64,000 nucleotides of DNA from Escherichia phage E26: sequence record MN655998.1; one strand, written 5' to 3'. The notes beneath the pieces are model-generated. The model did no database searches. It was given only the letters and a program-made list of their open reading frames with translations, and was not told the origin of the DNA. The translations under genes and the position numbers were made by a program. Below are positions 1 to 26,543 of the stretch, in pieces. How positions within the stretch are numbered: position 1 is the stretch's first letter; every line of letters starts with the position of its first letter.

Positions 1-510
1 ACGTGATTCTAATTGGATCATACGGTCGCGCGTTTGCTTATATTCGCGGATAGCACCGATTCGGCTAGGCATACCATCCAGTACGCTCTTAATACCTTCT
101 AGGGTAGTGATTTTAGCAATGCTATTATGCAATCCTGTCTTATCGATCAACTGAATGTCGTAGGCTTCCATAAGCAGACCCAGACGTTCTAAAGTTAGGT
201 CTTCTTCTTTTTCTTCCGATTCTGGAATCTTAGGTTCAATAGTAACTTCGGTAAAGAAACGACGCTCAGCAGCCCAAAACCACACACCGGAACAGCCAAT
301 AGGGGATTCTTTTAACGTCATAGAGTCGAAATCACTACCAATAATAGTAATTTCTCTAACATCACCATCATCGTCAATGTCTTCTACCATAAACGGGCGA
401 CCAGCCAACAAGTCCACAATACATCTGTTAATAGACGACGAAAATTTAGTCAGTTCGGCTTTCGACGCTTCGCATTCAATCTTGTAAGTTTTACCAACTT
501 CCCATTCCAT
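1..510 (-). CDS. hypothetical protein, partial (C-terminus beyond window start)
   Basis: Minus-strand frame open from ATG at 510 to position 1 (checked codon by codon); GGTGA RBS upstream; absent from ORF track because no stop in window. Confidence 0.55.
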   Translation of the reverse strand, partial: MEWEVGKTYKIECEASKAELTKFSSSINRCIVDLLAGRPFMVEDIDDDGDVREITIIGSDFDSMTLKESPIGCSGVWFWAAERRFFTEVTIEPKIPESEEKEEDLTLERLGLLMEAYDIQLIDKTGLHNSIAKITTLEGIKSVLDGMPSRIGAIREYKQTRDRMIQLESR

Positions 511-2426: not shown

Positions 2427-4289
2427 TTACATGTGCTTAACGCGGTTTACCATCTCGGAGTGTTTCCCGTGGTTGAATGGACGCAGATCAACAGATCCAA
2501 GATATCCACTAACGCGACGGATAACATTCATCTTTTCCAGATTGTCGTTGCCGCAATCAGGACAAACAAAACCAGACTCGGTCGCTCTCATTTCCTTATT
2601 AGATCCGCATACATGACATACATCAGAAGGAGTATTAACACCGAAGTAGTGCAATTTATCCATTGCATAGTCTACTACAGTTTCAAGACCTTTCAGGTTG
2701 TTTTTCATGTCTGGGAACTCAACATAAGAGATCATGCCACCGGACGCCAGCCAGTGATAATCTTTCTCAAAGTCGATTTTCTCAAATGGTGTGACTTTCC
2801 GGTCTACGTCAAGGTGGAATGAGTTGGTGTACCAGTCTTTATCGGTAGCACCCTTAACAATACCAAATTGCTCTCGATCCAGTCGATTAAATCGATAGCA
2901 AAGGCTCTCGGCTGGCGTACCGTAAAGACTAAACCCAAGTCCGGTTTCATCCTTCCATTTTTCAGTATAATGACGCAAGATCTTAAGAATATGTTTACCG
3001 TATCGCTGCGCATCTTCCGAATCAAACGGATGAACACCAAACAGGACGCTCAATACCTCATGTAAACCAATATATCCAAGAGAGATACTAGCGCGACCAT
3101 CTTTCAACACTTCCAAAATTTCATCGTTTTGATGAATACGGAAAAATGCACCTTCTGTATACAGCACCGGAGCAACATTGGCTTTAGCGCCTTTTAAAGC
3201 GTCTACGCGACTCATGAGCGCATCAAAGCAAATAGGCATACGATTGGCTAGCTCTTGTTCGAATAGCTCAATTCTGCGCATTACAGACGCTTTACCAGCA
3301 CGAAGCGCGGCAATAAGGGCAATACGCGGAAGATTCAGAGTCACAACACCTAAGTTATTACGTCCGTCTAATACTTCTTCGCCTTTCTCATTATGCCACA
3401 CACCCAGGAAGCTACGACAACCCATCGGGCTAACCGGAACACTAGATCCAGTGATGCTACGGTTATTCTTCGCAGAGATATAATCAGGGTAAAGACGCTT
3501 ACTAGAACATTCCAATGCAAGTTGCTTAATGTCGTAGTTCGGATCTTCCGGTTTAAGGTTTAATCCTTCTTCTAAGAACATCACCAGCTTAGGAAACACC
3601 GGAGTTATACCATCTTTACCTAAACCTTTAGTTCGAACTTTCAGGATCGCTTTCTGAATCAGTTTTTCTTCCCAGCTAGTACCCATACCAAAGGTTAAAG
3701 TCACAAAAGGCGTTTGACCGTTGGTGGAGAACAAAGTGTTGATTTCATATTCCAACGCTTGATACCCGTCTAAAGTTTCTTTTTCTGTCTTCTCTTGTGC
3801 ATAGAGAGTATCAGCTTTGATTCCGTAGGTTTCGGCATCAGCAAGGTGTTTATGATATGTTTTCTCAACGTATGGCGCTAAAACCTGATCGATGTTTGCA
3901 ATTGTGGTCCCGCCATATTGATGACTTGCCACCTGTGCGATAATTTGAGCGGTTACAGCACAAGCAACGCCGATTGATTTCGGACTTTCGATTTGTGCGC
4001 TACCCAATTTAAAACCATTCTCTAACATGTCTTTGAGATTAACAAGACAGCAGTTAGTAAACGGCATAGCGGGTGCATAATCCATATCATGATAATGAAT
4101 ATCACCGTCTACATGCGCTTTATAGATGTGCTCAGGTAACACGGTTTTAGCAATCTGTTTAGACACAGCACCAGCAATCAGATCTCGACGTGTCGGGAAT
4201 GTTCGCGCGTCTTTGTTCGCGTTCTCTTTGCTTACTTCGTTTTCTTTACCCGTTGCGATCTCTGTAATGTCTTTGATTAGTTTTTCCAT
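2427..4289 (-). CDS. nrdD: anaerobic ribonucleoside-triphosphate reductase NrdD (glycyl radical enzyme)
   Basis: 620 aa; C-terminal zinc ribbon (CHVCGS...CPDCG) and glycyl radical motif RVSGYLG; ATG at 4289 with AGGTGA RBS. Confidence 0.95.
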   Translation of the reverse strand: MEKLIKDITEIATGKENEVSKENANKDARTFPTRRDLIAGAVSKQIAKTVLPEHIYKAHVDGDIHYHDMDYAPAMPFTNCCLVNLKDMLENGFKLGSAQIESPKSIGVACAVTAQIIAQVASHQYGGTTIANIDQVLAPYVEKTYHKHLADAETYGIKADTLYAQEKTEKETLDGYQALEYEINTLFSTNGQTPFVTLTFGMGTSWEEKLIQKAILKVRTKGLGKDGITPVFPKLVMFLEEGLNLKPEDPNYDIKQLALECSSKRLYPDYISAKNNRSITGSSVPVSPMGCRSFLGVWHNEKGEEVLDGRNNLGVVTLNLPRIALIAALRAGKASVMRRIELFEQELANRMPICFDALMSRVDALKGAKANVAPVLYTEGAFFRIHQNDEILEVLKDGRASISLGYIGLHEVLSVLFGVHPFDSEDAQRYGKHILKILRHYTEKWKDETGLGFSLYGTPAESLCYRFNRLDREQFGIVKGATDKDWYTNSFHLDVDRKVTPFEKIDFEKDYHWLASGGMISYVEFPDMKNNLKGLETVVDYAMDKLHYFGVNTPSDVCHVCGSNKEMRATESGFVCPDCGNDNLEKMNVIRRVSGYLGSVDLRPFNHGKHSEMVNRVKHM

Positions 4290-4301
4290 TGTATCACCTA
4301 T

Positions 4302-4324
4302 GAAAAAGCGGGATTTCTCCCGCT
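4302..4324 (-). other. stem-loop with short U-run immediately upstream of nrdD RBS
   Basis: Inverted repeat AGCGGGA/TCCCGCT at 4307-4324, then TTTTT and RBS on minus strand. Confidence 0.5.
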
Positions 4325-4333
4325 CGTTGATAG

Positions 4334-4828
4334 TTATTTTACCAGTTCTGCTAATTCTTTTTCCGCCGCTTCCAGTTCAGCTTTAAGCTGTTTAATCTCT
4401 TGTCGCTTCTTATTAGCGGCTTCCTGCTTACTATTTCGGATAACCTGATCTAGATACAACTCCCAATCCTGAATATTTTTGATAATGTAGCCGTCAACAT
4501 TAATTGGTCGTAGATTCAGTACAGCTTCCAGTTTAGTCGCAAAAACTTTAATTGCTGGTGTGAAGTATTCATATTCGTTATCTTCAAACCAATAACCTAG
4601 ACTTGCATTATCAATACGAAGACGAAGTTCAAGATCAAGGTCTTTATCTTCGGTGTAAAGATCTTTCACCTGACCCAGCGAACTAACAACAACTTTAAAA
4701 CGAATTTTATCTACACCACCAAACACATCAGTAAGTATACCAGCAATTGAGCTATTAGCGCAAGATTGGTCGCTGAATGCGTCAAGGTTTTCTTTAGTTA
4801 CAGTATACCAAACATCTTGTACCCACAT
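4334..4828 (-). CDS. hypothetical protein
   Basis: ORF with ATG at 4828 and GAGAGGA RBS, behind a promoter cassette. Confidence 0.55.
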   Translation of the reverse strand: MWVQDVWYTVTKENLDAFSDQSCANSSIAGILTDVFGGVDKIRFKVVVSSLGQVKDLYTEDKDLDLELRLRIDNASLGYWFEDNEYEYFTPAIKVFATKLEAVLNLRPINVDGYIIKNIQDWELYLDQVIRNSKQEAANKKRQEIKQLKAELEAAEKELAELVK

Positions 4829-4858
4829 AATATAATCCTCTCGTTGTTAAGTGGGAGT

Positions 4859-4886
4859 ATTATAGCATACTCCCTTCGCATGTCAA
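4859..4886 (-). promoter_or_regulatory. sigma70-type early promoter, -10 inside a hairpin loop
   Basis: TTGACA (4881-4886) N16 TATAAT (4859-4864); GGGAGTA/TACTCCC stem encloses the -10. Confidence 0.6.
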
Positions 4887-6061
4887 GCACTAACTTTTTT
4901 CTTTACTGCTTTCACCTTCTGGCGAATTGCTCGAATCTCTTCGATCTCTTTTTCAGTATCTTTAACAATTTCTTTGCGATTCTGAATATCTTTATCGAGA
5001 TTATCATCAAGTTTAGGCAGCATGTCAATCAAGAACTTTTTAAGGTCTTTCAGGTTGCGAATAACAGTACCTTCACCCATTACCGCCACACCTACACCGT
5101 CCGGCAGATCACCAAACAGTTTAACCAGTTCAGACAGATGATCATGATCTTCTAGTGCTTCTTCCGGTTCAGATGGCAGTTCAACAAAGTTATAACGTTC
5201 ATCATTGCTGATCAAGTGATACCAGCAAAGCCCGAAAGATTTCGGTGTATATTCTACACCATCAATTTCAACCGCGTCAACACTTCCATAATCATCTACT
5301 TTAGTTACCTTAAATCCTTGTCCCAGCTTTTGAACAATTTCAACAACATGACTTGATACAGTTTCAGCGGTAAACCAATATGGCAAATTATGCTGATTTG
5401 GCTTGTAGCGTTCACCTACTTTAAATCTCTGACCATCCGCTTGCATAGAATGAAATTGTTGTTTCGTGATTTCCGCGAAGTATTCAAATTCGCTACCGTC
5501 AAACAAGCAATTCCATTGATCACAAAAACGATCCGCCTTAACAGTTTCACCTTTCGCGGTGATCATGGTAGCTGATCCGTGCAATTCTTCTTCAACTAAA
5601 AAGCCATATTCGACAAAATCAACAAGTTTCATAGCTTCTTTGTGATCTGGATCATGCTCTCCCCAGAATCGCTTAAATTCTTGCAAACCTTCTGGTGTAA
5701 ACGAATAACATTTACCTTTTTCAAAGTAAGTCGGCATTGCATCCTCTTTCTTGTTCATCGCTTCGTATGCCTCTTTTGAGATGCGTTTAAAGTATTTACG
5801 CTCATCGTGCATAATCATAGTAGCCCAATAATAAACGATATCCTCAGCGGAATAAACTACATCTCCAGCTTCAATAGTAATAACATGACCGTTGTCATCT
5901 TTTTCTAATACTTTAAAGCCCTTTTCGACGATTTCAGCAACCCGAATATGACCACGGCGCGAAGCATCGGTCAGAATAATTGAATAGCGAGAAAAGTCTA
6001 GAAACTCATCTTTACCACCTTCACGGAATGCATAGTAATGACCTTCAAAGAATTTAGCCAT
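4883..6061 (-). CDS. hypothetical protein, paralog family A (two copies of a shared domain)
   Basis: 392 aa; shares ERKYFKRIxK and GFKV(L/T) motifs with the next two ORFs; ATG at 6061. Confidence 0.6.
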   Translation of the reverse strand: MAKFFEGHYYAFREGGKDEFLDFSRYSIILTDASRRGHIRVAEIVEKGFKVLEKDDNGHVITIEAGDVVYSAEDIVYYWATMIMHDERKYFKRISKEAYEAMNKKEDAMPTYFEKGKCYSFTPEGLQEFKRFWGEHDPDHKEAMKLVDFVEYGFLVEEELHGSATMITAKGETVKADRFCDQWNCLFDGSEFEYFAEITKQQFHSMQADGQRFKVGERYKPNQHNLPYWFTAETVSSHVVEIVQKLGQGFKVTKVDDYGSVDAVEIDGVEYTPKSFGLCWYHLISNDERYNFVELPSEPEEALEDHDHLSELVKLFGDLPDGVGVAVMGEGTVIRNLKDLKKFLIDMLPKLDDNLDKDIQNRKEIVKDTEKEIEEIRAIRQKVKAVKKKVSA

Positions 6062-6092
6062 AATATAATCCTCTAGTTGTTTAAATGGGAGT

Positions 6093-6121
6093 ATCTTACT
6101 ACTCCCGTTTCATCATGTCAA
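6093..6121 (-). promoter_or_regulatory. sigma70-type early promoter, -10 inside a hairpin loop
   Basis: TTGACA (6116-6121) N17 TAAGAT (6093-6098); GGGAGTA/TACTCCC stem around the -10. Confidence 0.6.
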
Positions 6122-6124
6122 GTG

Positions 6125-6685
6125 TTAAAGTGACTTTTGGATCTCTTTCAGTTCAGCTACTTTATCGGCGCTGAATTTAGCGTAGGTATCATGTCGAATA
6201 ATTTCACTTTCAAGAAAGGTTTCCAGCCGAGATCTATTTTCAATAAGGAACTCTTTCAGGTCTTCCGCGTTCTTGATAAAGATTTTATTGTCAGTAATGT
6301 CATCTTCAATCGCAAAGGAGATAGAGCGAACTTTACCAAACAAGTTAATCAGATCTTCCAGAGATTCTTCTTTCTTAACTGGTTTCATTTCTTCAAACTG
6401 CTTTTTAGTGATGCGTTTAAAGTATTTGCGCTCGCTTGCATCAATCATGATTGACGCACCCTCATAATCATGAGTTTCTACCAAATACACTTTACCCATA
6501 ACATTAACCGTAAGAACTTTAAAGCCCCTGTGAAGCACACCATACAGGAACTTGTTATGTTGTGGATAGCGTTTAACAAATTCCTCTGCGGACTCAGCAT
6601 TACGGAAAGTGTAATAACGACCTCGTTCAAAAACAGCATCATTTGAAGACTTAGCTGGATACAATTTATACGTTTTCTGTACCAT
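6125..6685 (-). CDS. hypothetical protein, paralog family A
   Basis: ATG at 6685 with AGAGGA RBS (track start further upstream lacks RBS); ERKYFKRITK and GFKVL motifs shared with 4883..6061. Confidence 0.55.
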   Translation of the reverse strand: MVQKTYKLYPAKSSNDAVFERGRYYTFRNAESAEEFVKRYPQHNKFLYGVLHRGFKVLTVNVMGKVYLVETHDYEGASIMIDASERKYFKRITKKQFEEMKPVKKEESLEDLINLFGKVRSISFAIEDDITDNKIFIKNAEDLKEFLIENRSRLETFLESEIIRHDTYAKFSADKVAELKEIQKSL

Positions 6686-6699
6686 AATACAATCCTCTA

Positions 6700-6972
6700 T
6701 CATTTCACTAATTGAACAGCACGAAACAGAATGCGGTCACACGGAAGAAGCATAAATTCCCAACGCGGATCAAAGTCTTTAGCGGTATATGTTTTCCCAT
6801 CAACCGAGATTTCACTTACATAACCAATAGGTGACACTTTAAGAACAGTAAATCCATTCTTGATGACTTCGTAGGTATCTTTCAAACCTTCGTAGTCATC
6901 CTCTAAGAAGTCTTTACGTGCTTGCTCAGATTTAAAAACATAGGCAACACCGGATTTAAACATCTTACGCAT
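6700..6972 (-). CDS. hypothetical protein, paralog family A (single domain)
   Basis: 90 aa; GFTVLKV motif resembles N-terminal domain of neighbours; ATG at 6972 with AAGGAG RBS. Confidence 0.5.
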   Translation of the reverse strand: MRKMFKSGVAYVFKSEQARKDFLEDDYEGLKDTYEVIKNGFTVLKVSPIGYVSEISVDGKTYTAKDFDPRWEFMLLPCDRILFRAVQLVK

Positions 6973-7003
6973 TGTTGATTCTCCTTCTTGATTAGATGGG
7001 AGT

Positions 7004-7032
7004 ATTTTACTACTCCCATTTCATGCTGTCAA
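7004..7032 (-). promoter_or_regulatory. sigma70-type early promoter, -10 inside a hairpin loop
   Basis: TTGACA (7027-7032) N17 TAAAAT (7004-7009); GGGAGTA/TACTCCC stem. Confidence 0.6.
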
Positions 7033-7035
7033 CTA

Positions 7036-7509
7036 CTATCTTAATCTTTGTATAAATTGTTTCTTATACTTCTTCGTGATCTCTTCTCTTGTATCAGCGT
7101 CACAATAATCGAAACCTTCTGCGTCCATAATAGCAACCATCTCCGCGCGTGTCAAGCGTGAAAATCGTTTTACTTTATCAACAGCATATTGAGGATGTAA
7201 ATGATTGTTGGTGTAGTCTCCTTTGATGTAATTAACATAGTTTGTCGCCCAAACAACGAAATCAGCACCTAAAGCACCAACACCAAACCGTTTAAAGTCT
7301 CCGGTCAACGATCCTTCTAGGCGGTTGCAACACGAATGAAGCAATCCCCTTACGCGGCCTTGCCCTTTACCATCTAGATCGTGGTCGTGGTCAAGATGGT
7401 TTTTGCTCATATCCTCAAAAAGTGGCAATTGACAAAGGGGGCAAATGCCCCCCTGTTTTTCGAATAGTTCTTGTTTGTACTCTTTAGCACTCTTAGCAGT
7501 CAGTAACAT
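7036..7509 (-). CDS. 49: endonuclease VII (Holliday junction resolvase, T4 gp49-like)
   Basis: Cys-rich zinc motif and HLDHDH motif recalled from T4 endonuclease VII; ATG at 7509 with GGAGGG RBS (track start is TTG). Confidence 0.85.
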   Translation of the reverse strand: MLLTAKSAKEYKQELFEKQGGICPLCQLPLFEDMSKNHLDHDHDLDGKGQGRVRGLLHSCCNRLEGSLTGDFKRFGVGALGADFVVWATNYVNYIKGDYTNNHLHPQYAVDKVKRFSRLTRAEMVAIMDAEGFDYCDADTREEITKKYKKQFIQRLR

Positions 7510-7533
7510 AAATTCACCCTCCAAAGAAGGTAT

Positions 7534-7815
7534 TTAACCATGAATCTTGTTTTTGACTACAAAGGATCGGAACTCATCAAAGCCACCAATATAATCACCA
7601 TCATAGAAAATCTGCGGCATGGTGGCAATAACTTCTACCCCTGCGCGATCCTGAATATCGGCAATGATAGAATCAATCTTTACGGGGCGACCGTTTTCGT
7701 CAACACCATCATTAACCGGAATGTAGATGTAAGGGATCTTACGCGATTCACAAAGGCGCTTTGCATTCTGGCAATACTTACAGTTGTAACCTTCAAAACC
7801 AAAAATTTCTACCAT
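7534..7815 (-). CDS. nrdC: glutaredoxin/thioredoxin NrdC
   Basis: CxxC active site (CKYC) near N-terminus and MPQ(I/V)F...GG motif as in T4 thioredoxin; ATG at 7815. Confidence 0.8.
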   Translation of the reverse strand: MVEIFGFEGYNCKYCQNAKRLCESRKIPYIYIPVNDGVDENGRPVKIDSIIADIQDRAGVEVIATMPQIFYDGDYIGGFDEFRSFVVKNKIHG

Positions 7816-11980: not shown

Positions 11981-12224
11981 TTACATTGTCTCCATAGATC
12001 TTTCCAGCAATATCAATTTCACCAGCGCGAACATCTAGGATAAGATGCGGTAGGTGTATGCAGTTTTCCCACCCTACGCGCTTCATTTCTTCTACGGTAA
12101 CGTAAGCCCACCCGTTCGCTGTAATAAAGTCTACTTCAACCTTGAGAGGAAAGCAAGACTTTTCTATGTCTTCGAATCCGACAATATGTTTTGTTGTTGA
12201 ATATGGAATATATCCGGTGATCAT
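11970..12224 (-). CDS. hypothetical protein
   Basis: ORF with ATG at 12224. Confidence 0.45.
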   Translation of the reverse strand: MITGYIPYSTTKHIVGFEDIEKSCFPLKVEVDFITANGWAYVTVEEMKRVGWENCIHLPHLILDVRAGEIDIAGKIYGDNVNEN

Positions 12225-12655
12225 TTTGTGATCTCCTTATACTCAACACACCATAAGCGGGTAGCCCATGATAAACGCTCATAACGCTGGCAGAAATCGG
12301 ACCATAGATATTGTGTACCGTCTTGCATAGTTGAAATATGCGTTTTCTCTCCTACTTTCACGAAAGAAGTATTCGATTTTGTGATCTCGACAGGAGTATA
12401 TCCGAAAGCTGGTTCCAAGTCAACATCTGAACTAAATGCCAATTTAACAGAATTTGTTTTTCTGACCGCTGTCCGGTTTCCTTCTGGGTATAGCACAGCA
12501 GGTTTAGCGCCTAAGCGGATAAACTCAGTATTTTTAATGAACAGAATATCATGATAACCGTCATATTCCGACACTTCCATAGTAACAGGAAAATCGATAT
12601 GTGCTAAACCTGGTAGATCTCGCATGTCATGAAATGTAGCCATCAACTTTTTCAT
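12221..12655 (-). CDS. hypothetical protein, paralog family C
   Basis: C-terminal VEITKSNTSFVKVGEKTHI...LSWA segment duplicated in 12666..12911. Confidence 0.5.
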   Translation of the reverse strand: MKKLMATFHDMRDLPGLAHIDFPVTMEVSEYDGYHDILFIKNTEFIRLGAKPAVLYPEGNRTAVRKTNSVKLAFSSDVDLEPAFGYTPVEITKSNTSFVKVGEKTHISTMQDGTQYLWSDFCQRYERLSWATRLWCVEYKEITK

Positions 12656-26514: not shown

Positions 26515-26543
26515 ATTGTAGGGGAGTTATCCTCCCCTGTCAA
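26515..26543 (-). promoter_or_regulatory. sigma70-type early promoter (TTGACA-N17-TACAAT), palindromic spacer
   Basis: Spacer GGGGAGGATAACTCCCC is a near-perfect inverted repeat. Confidence 0.55.

Follow-up and report, generated by a model that had tools for sequence, protein, structure and literature searches.

A window of 64,000 nucleotides (nt) of Escherichia phage E26 (MN655998.1) was examined around three open reading frames (ORFs) of 392, 186, and 90 amino acids (aa), all located on the minus strand between gene 49 (endonuclease VII) and nrdD; coordinates are positions in this window unless stated otherwise. The three genes are members of the GoF/Frd.2/MotB.1 family of T4-like phages, and this assignment is solid. 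Their repeated unit is a ~95-aa SH3/LSm-like five-stranded beta-barrel (hereafter N-domain) with a two-helix insert after strand 1, and in most members the barrel is followed by a helical C-terminal module ("LxxLF...DLKxFL" plus a long terminal helix; C module). Taken alone, this gene identity and anatomy is, in our judgement, highly probable; combined with a general role of the proteins as early "takeover" binders, the whole is still likely, at a lower level of confidence.

The phage belongs to the genus Krischvirus (Straboviridae), and the 3.3 kb spanning the three ORFs is 96–98% identical to the RB49-like coliphages of this genus kaaroe, JSE, RB49, and PHB13. The genes are therefore named here after their RB49 counterparts, ORF058 (392 aa; RB49p058, gene name "frd.2"), ORF059 (186 aa; p059), and ORF060 (90 aa; p060). 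Both p058 and p059 carry the label "goF mRNA metabolism modulator" in RefSeq and PHROGs. Kim et al. (2025, PMC12152347) placed the GoF family in "Tevenvirinae"; the taxonomy of the RB49 record does not put Krischvirus within this subfamily.

Domain architecture and family assignment

Five N-domain copies were compared, namely ORF058 aa 1–106 (R1), 107–208 (R2), and 209–300 (R3), ORF059 aa 1–102 (059N), and ORF060. Significance was determined by scoring each pair of copies with the Smith-Waterman algorithm against 500 shuffles. Seven of the ten pairs gave z values of 9–14, with none of the 500 shuffles reaching the observed score; ORF060 aligned to R1, R3, and 059N at z 9–11, and two pairs scored only weakly on their own (R2 versus R3, z 1.9; R3 versus 059N, z 3.2). 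Global identity between copies was 20–35%. BLASTP among the three proteins gave E-values of 5e-9 to 2e-5, and a profile made from the domain copies picked out exactly these three ORFs within the window. With a broad profile, R1, R2, and R3 were each detected in ORF058 at independent E-values of 1e-24 to 1e-27. The "LxxLFG...DLKxFL" C module is common to ORF058 and ORF059 (z 7.7), and ORF060 lacks both this module and the ERKYFKRI motif. A mixed alignment (A5) was not used, as it split single-domain homologues between repeat 1 (their strand 1) and repeat 3 (the remainder).

An initial annotation, made from the sequence alone, had located the three ORFs correctly, and had described them as paralogs made up of copies of a single domain, which they are. 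It had proposed pairwise alignment as a check, with non-significant motifs as the refuting outcome, and the motifs are significant: the N-terminal ~95 aa lie far above chance in all three proteins. Its module had been drawn too wide, given that ERKYFKRI and the C module do not extend to the 90-aa ORF, and its count of two N-terminal copies in the largest protein has to be raised to three on the basis of the profile matches. Along the minus strand, the architectures are thus N (ORF060), N-C (ORF059), N-N-N-C (ORF058), and, in the adjoining ORF057, a divergent N-C.

Two repeat patches were observed at the DNA level, one between 5754–5803 and 6384–6433 (78% over 50 nt, with a core of 23/24) and one between 4562–4589 in ORF057 and 5477–5504 in R2 of ORF058 (86% over 28 nt). 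Both fall at the strand-5 "E..YF" region of domains that are otherwise 20–35% identical, and either gene conversion or a constraint acting on the nucleotides could explain them.

The profile phrog_622 was matched by ORF058 (E 5.6e-20, in three stretches), ORF059 (1.3e-5), and ORF060 (1.3e-6), and likewise by T4 GoF (4.6e-38) and T4 Frd.2 (4.1e-46). All three window ORFs also matched phrog_5347, with ORF059 additionally matching phrog_8944 ("goF") and ORF060 matching phrog_16115. A profile (A2) that comprised the window domains, GoF, Frd.2, and metagenomic relatives, and from which MotB.1 had been left out, recovered T4 MotB.1 at 3e-5. When a profile of the window domains only was used, GoF ranked first among 189 T4 ORFs (E 0.004). 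Alignment of the five window domains to single T4 sequences using hhalign was weak (E 1e-3 and 4.5e-3), and sequence identity to GoF is ~20%. A single-sequence search of a 5.8-billion-protein set returned orthologues of at least 82% identity alone, and the window-only profile, for which the family is too divergent, gave 10 matches among 1.8 billion representatives, two of them long (4074 and 1079 aa) and probably spurious. Pfam holds no family for the N-domain and yielded sub-threshold noise alone (RecT, KIB1-4), and a sequence search of the PDB gave no match.

ORF059 was modeled with AlphaFold2 (AF2) from a 17-sequence alignment, with a mean predicted local distance difference test (pLDDT) score of 78.5 and values of ~90 over most of the barrel. 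The model has strands at residues 24–27, 55–60, 66–70, 77–81, and 89–92, two helices inserted after strand 1, and, after the barrel, a helical C domain ending in a 35-residue helix (151–185). It therefore shows the bent, five-stranded antiparallel N-terminal sheet (barrel), the linker, and the variable C-terminal domain by which the family fold is defined. Foldseek searches of viral models (BFVD) returned GoF of phage VR7, Dc2, and many uncharacterized proteins of T4-like phages, and a Foldseek search of the PDB gave no significant match. Weak fold neighbors included the Tudor domain of PcrA/UvrD, which binds RNA polymerase, the KOW domain of NusG/Spt5, and eL27.

GoF (ComC-alpha), Frd.2, and MotB.1 are three early T4 proteins of LSm-like (SH3-like) fold, and their structural neighbors include FeoA, IdeR/SloR, and Hfq (Kim et al. 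2025, PMC12152347). The window proteins share with this trio the N-terminal five-stranded small barrel, PHROG 622, and FeoA and IdeR as fold neighbors, as well as the occurrence of several paralogs per genome in T4-like phages and a predicted early expression from sigma-70 promoters. They differ in number, position, and build. In T4, the three genes have one barrel each and are spread over three sites, whereas no goF, motB.1, or frd.2 was found at the T4 positions in RB49 (39-motB and frd-32 sites examined); RB49 instead has ~10 genes with ~13 barrels, and eight of these genes flank nrdG-nrdD. In contrast to the single barrels of T4, ORF058 fuses three and RB49 ORF049 two, and ORF060 consists of one barrel and nothing else. 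Most RB49 members also have in common a longer C module that ends in a long helix, a feature that is absent from the published description of the family (PMC12152347).

In this setting, the term "LSm-like" conveys no more than "SH3-like small barrel" does. Hfq and Sm (LSm) proteins resemble the window domains in their small five-stranded bent beta-sheet, and a possible link to mRNA stability exists through the GoF variant D25Y. The window domains, however, have neither the Sm-type N-terminal helix nor an Sm1/Sm2 motif, and they carry two helices between strands 1 and 2. There was no Pfam LSM/Hfq match up to an E-value of 1, Hfq was not among the fold matches listed, and no ring oligomer is predicted for the GoF family (PMC12152347). 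Identities to FeoA, to the SH3-like domain of DtxR/IdeR, and to KOW/Tudor barrels were 6–14%, with no sign of common ancestry or function.

Promoter cassettes and predicted transcription units

Hairpins were located by using the regular expression GGGAGTA-loop-TACTCCC, and promoters were scored as the number of matches out of 12 to the sigma-70 consensus. At this locus, three cassettes of promoter plus stem-loop, the arrangement known as a PeSL (promoter-early stem-loop), were found (Table 1). Cassettes 1, 2, and 3 matched the consensus at 11, 10, and 12 of the 12 positions, the last with a TG extension, and their hairpins had free energies (dG) of -13.8, -11.9, and -13.3 kcal/mol (z -4.6, -3.7, and -4.0 against shuffles). 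Spacers are 16–17 nt, stems are 7–9 bp and overlap the -10 box, and the stem GGGAGTA/TACTCCC is nearly identical in all three. The stop codon of ORF058 lies inside the -35 box of cassette 3. The translation-start box AGAGGATT(A/G)TATTATG is found at 4826–4848, 6059–6081, and 6683–6705; the 16-nt box is identical at ORF057 and ORF058, and that at ORF059 differs by one base.

PeSL cassettes have been described from RB49, phi1, and other T4-like phages (PMC2839356; PMC4122927). These three resemble them in the sigma-70 consensus promoter with an AT-rich upstream region and a stable stem-loop over the -10 box, in a preceding gene whose stop codon falls at or within the -35 region, in the Shine-Dalgarno box and ATG at the 3' end, and in their intergenic position before genes of unknown function and adjoining nrdD; nothing essential differs. 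Promoter and terminator activity have been shown by lacZ fusions for other PeSLs of RB49/phi1, and PeSLs are associated with gene shuffling and were noted explicitly beside nrdD (PMC2839356). The early promoter consensus of RB49 agrees with mapping of transcript 5' ends (PMC1524935). None of the three hairpins is followed by a T-run, and strong intrinsic termination by them is therefore doubtful. An Rfam scan of 4200–7700 gave no match.

The initial annotation had given each of the three genes a hairpin promoter of its own. This holds for the 90-aa and 392-aa genes; no PeSL or other hairpin promoter precedes the 186-aa gene, whose ATG lies 14 nt past the ORF060 stop codon behind a Shine-Dalgarno box alone, and which is predicted to form one operon with ORF060. 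On the basis of the consensus matches and of published work on other RB49/phi1 PeSLs, the predicted transcription units run from cassette 1 through ORF060 and ORF059, from cassette 2 through ORF058, and from cassette 3 through ORF057, with an intrinsic terminator and then nrdD beyond. Terminators are annotated at the matching place in GEC-3S and G37-3. A further promoter of PeSL type, whose stem differs (TTGACAGGGGAGGATAACTCCCCTACAAT), was observed on the minus strand at 26522–26536.

Table 1. Genes, cassettes, and terminator in the window (SD, Shine-Dalgarno)
Feature	Position	Strand	Description
ORF060	6700..6972	-	90 aa; single N-domain without C module; first gene of the predicted 060-059 operon; profile E 2.5e-29
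ORF059	6125..6685	-	186 aa from Met at 6685; N-domain aa 1-102 (6380-6685) and helical C module (6125-6379)
ORF058	4883..6061	-	392 aa; N-domains R1 5744-6061, R2 5438-5743, R3 5162-5437; C module 4883-5161
ORF057	4334..4828	-	164 aa; N-domain, then "IKNIQDWELYL", then coiled-coil tail; probable divergent fourth family member
RB49 ORF051 orthologue	1..510	-	N+C member downstream of nrdG; C-terminus cut by window start; translation MEWEVGKTYK...
PeSL cassette 1	6973..7035	-	-35 TTGACA 7032-7027; -10 TAAAAT 7009-7004; hairpin 6998-7018; SD box of ORF060
PeSL cassette 2	6062..6124	-	-35 TTGACA 6121-6116; -10 TAAGAT 6098-6093; hairpin 6087-6107; box AGAGGATTATATTATG into ORF058
PeSL cassette 3	4829..4886	-	-35 TTGACA 4886-4881; -10 TATAAT 4864-4859; hairpin 4853-4875; same SD box into ORF057
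Intrinsic terminator	4302..4325	-	GAGCGGGA-GAAA-TCCCGCT then TTTT; closes the array; 12 nt before nrdD ATG

Proposed role and alternative explanations

T4 GoF, an early, dispensable protein present at ~20,000 copies per cell, runs as a dimer, as does MotB.1; the variant GoF(D25Y) stabilizes gene 41 mRNA post-transcriptionally, which wild-type GoF does not (PMC12152347). In a CRISPRi-ART screen, frd.2 was the sole T4 fitness gene of unknown function (PMC11879866). Like T4 GoF, the window members would be abundant, non-essential prereplicative takeover proteins; they would dimerize through the C-terminal helix. Their barrels may bind RNA or RNA-handling host proteins (in the area of Rho, RNases, and translation) and so tune mRNA fate. 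Since surface and charge differ among the paralogs, their ligands would probably differ as well, and ORF058, with its three barrels, could act multivalently. ORF059 has a basic N-domain (isoelectric point, 9.6), and in the A2 alignment ORF059 has Arg at the GoF D25 column and Lys at the GoF G84 column, the sites of the gain-of-function substitutions D25Y and G84R. An RNA-linked mechanism is put forward as a tentative possibility. A bolder version, in which ORF058 dimerizes via its long C-terminal helix to bring six barrels into a pseudo-hexameric, Hfq-like RNA-binding platform, and in which the C module lets ~10 paralogs form mixed dimers that act as combinatorial RNA/protein adaptors reprogramming host mRNA metabolism early in infection, is very unlikely.

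Several points weigh against this functional reading. A reporter assay showed little effect of GoF and MotB.1 in their wild-type forms, and deletions were without a laboratory phenotype (PMC12152347), and the wild-type role suggested here for family members is proposed by analogy. Most of the domains are acidic, with a net charge of -21 for ORF058 and -8 for ORF057, which argues against direct RNA binding by them. Part of the alignment at the suppressor sites falls within a variable helix. For the three cassettes, both PeSL activity and early timing are predictions from their sequence. The three-barrel arrangement of ORF058 is likewise read from sequence alone; an AF2 model of the full-length protein (nine near-identical orthologues) had a pLDDT of 40 and was not used.

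The same acidity would suit a different function, in which the proteins are protein-binding adaptors or mimics, not RNA binders, with barrels of the KOW/Tudor/SH3-like kind docking on and modulating Rho, NusG partners, RNA polymerase, or the degradosome. The discovery of goF genetically through rho alleles points this way, as do the weak fold neighbors named above and the observation that conserved residues are mostly those of the hydrophobic core, which leaves surfaces free to diverge. A GoF pull-down, however, recovered essentially GoF alone, and we consider this explanation rather unlikely.

The initial annotation had viewed the paralogs as recent duplicates, of a kind often seen for host-interaction genes under arms-race selection. 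The locus is indeed plastic. In a metagenomic T4-like relative (ENA ERZ27235521, contig k119_34593, 5522–9957 of the stretch examined) whose nrdD is 82% identical, the site between gp49 and nrdD holds a different set of three separate N+C paralogs (196, 204, and 189 aa) with hairpin promoters of their own, e.g., TTGACA...GAGGGTAT-AGTATCA-TACCCTC. Gene content at the site would thus be reshuffled between lineages, plausibly via recombination at the flanking PeSLs. The duplications themselves are ancient: because the copies are only 20–35% identical, they cannot be called recent, the 060-059-058-057 arrangement is shared by all 58 Krischvirus records, and the more distant metagenomic relative already holds three separate paralogs at this site. 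The comparison of copy number across relatives that had been suggested shows a fixed arrangement of these four genes within the genus and a different gene set in the metagenomic relative.

Selection was determined as the ratio of nonsynonymous to synonymous divergence (dN/dS), using the gene-wide Nei-Gojobori method across eight Krischvirus genomes. Values were 0.12 for ORF060, 0.22 for ORF059, 0.24 for ORF058, and 0.28 for ORF057, compared with 0.02 for gp49 and 0.04 for nrdD. Selection on the four genes is purifying but relaxed relative to these core neighbors. In the same genomes, dS was ~0.9–1.0 for orthologues of ORF057 and ORF059 and at most 0.25 for ORF058, ORF060, nrdD, and gp49, which suggests allele replacement at PeSL-bounded genes. 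Diversification of recently duplicated host-interaction or anti-defence genes could draw on the plasticity of this PeSL-flanked region between core genes, on dN/dS values 3–10 times those of the neighbors, on the divergent ORF057/ORF059 alleles, and on ORF049, which has one or two domains depending on the isolate. Against it stand the age of the duplications, the invariant gene order within the genus, and gene-wide ratios that remain purifying; PADLOC gave no match to defence models, which is weak evidence given that its library consists of host defence proteins. On balance, this explanation is distinctly unlikely.

For ORF058, an origin by in-frame fusion of three neighboring genes was considered, and the score matrix gave no support for it. 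The 196-aa protein of the metagenomic relative was nearest to R1, R2, and the C module of ORF058 alike, and internal domain duplication is therefore favored over fusion.

A metal-linked function like that of FeoA or of the SH3-like domain of DtxR/IdeR/SloR is extremely improbable: the similarity is at the level of fold only, and the domain alignments have no conserved His/Cys metal ligands, which are likewise lacking in GoF (Kim et al., PMC12152347). The probability that the shared motifs arose by chance, or merely from the composition of this AT-rich phage genome, is virtually nil despite the two weak domain pairs, this origin having already been refuted by the shuffle tests, the profile search, and the independent PHROG profiles that match all copies, and orthologues are kept under purifying selection.

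Further family members and standing of the finding

ORF057 is probably a fourth, divergent member of the family, with moderate support. It was matched by the broad profile (E 1.3e-6, profile positions 4–87) and not detected by the window-only profile. It also matched phrog_3710 (2.2e-4), which T4 GoF matches at 8e-12, its C-terminal segment shows the same pattern as the family C module, and the 28-nt DNA patch shared with R2 of ORF058 adds to the support. The Foldseek search of viral models also returned, at an E-value of 2e-5, a 163-aa protein of ECD7 that has the length of the ORF057 orthologues and may be one of them. The truncated ORF at the window start was matched by the broad profile at 2.8e-13 (3.9e-12 for RB49p051).

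In the remainder of the RB49 genome, the broad profile matched p048, p049 (two barrels), p050, and Dc2. The two N-domains of RB49p049 (2776–3600 of the RB49 stretch examined, just beyond the window) are by far the most alike pair, with a Smith-Waterman score of 219. The ORF049 match is only ~540 nt long in two of the 58 Krischvirus records (ELT4 and AV108). This points to a version with one barrel and to a domain gained or lost recently, the sole sign of recent change in copy number.

Both components of the locus had been described before, the PeSL cassettes in 2010 (PMC2839356) and the GoF/MotB.1/Frd.2 family in 2025 (PMC12152347). The finding is largely ordinary and opens no new category, since both building blocks are published and two of the three genes are labeled "goF". 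As far as could be found, the three-barrel protein and the expansion to ~10 genes are undescribed, although incremental. RB49-like phages have moved the family and expanded it around the anaerobic ribonucleotide reductase genes, and the descriptive additions are the multi-barrel fusions, one naturally basic paralog, and the C-terminal module common to most members. The wild-type function of GoF is a decades-old question, and the natural basic-residue variants at gain-of-function positions could serve in tests of RNA stabilization.

Two observations were made away from the array. RB49 Dc2 (211 aa; 11993–12628 of the RB49 stretch examined), located near gene 41 and thus apart from the array, is a putative distant relative of the family (profile E 2e-7; Foldseek 9e-4). 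In GEC-3S, a gene for an HNH homing endonuclease lies between nrdC and dam (5018–5773 of the stretch examined), a gene that is absent from both the window and RB49.

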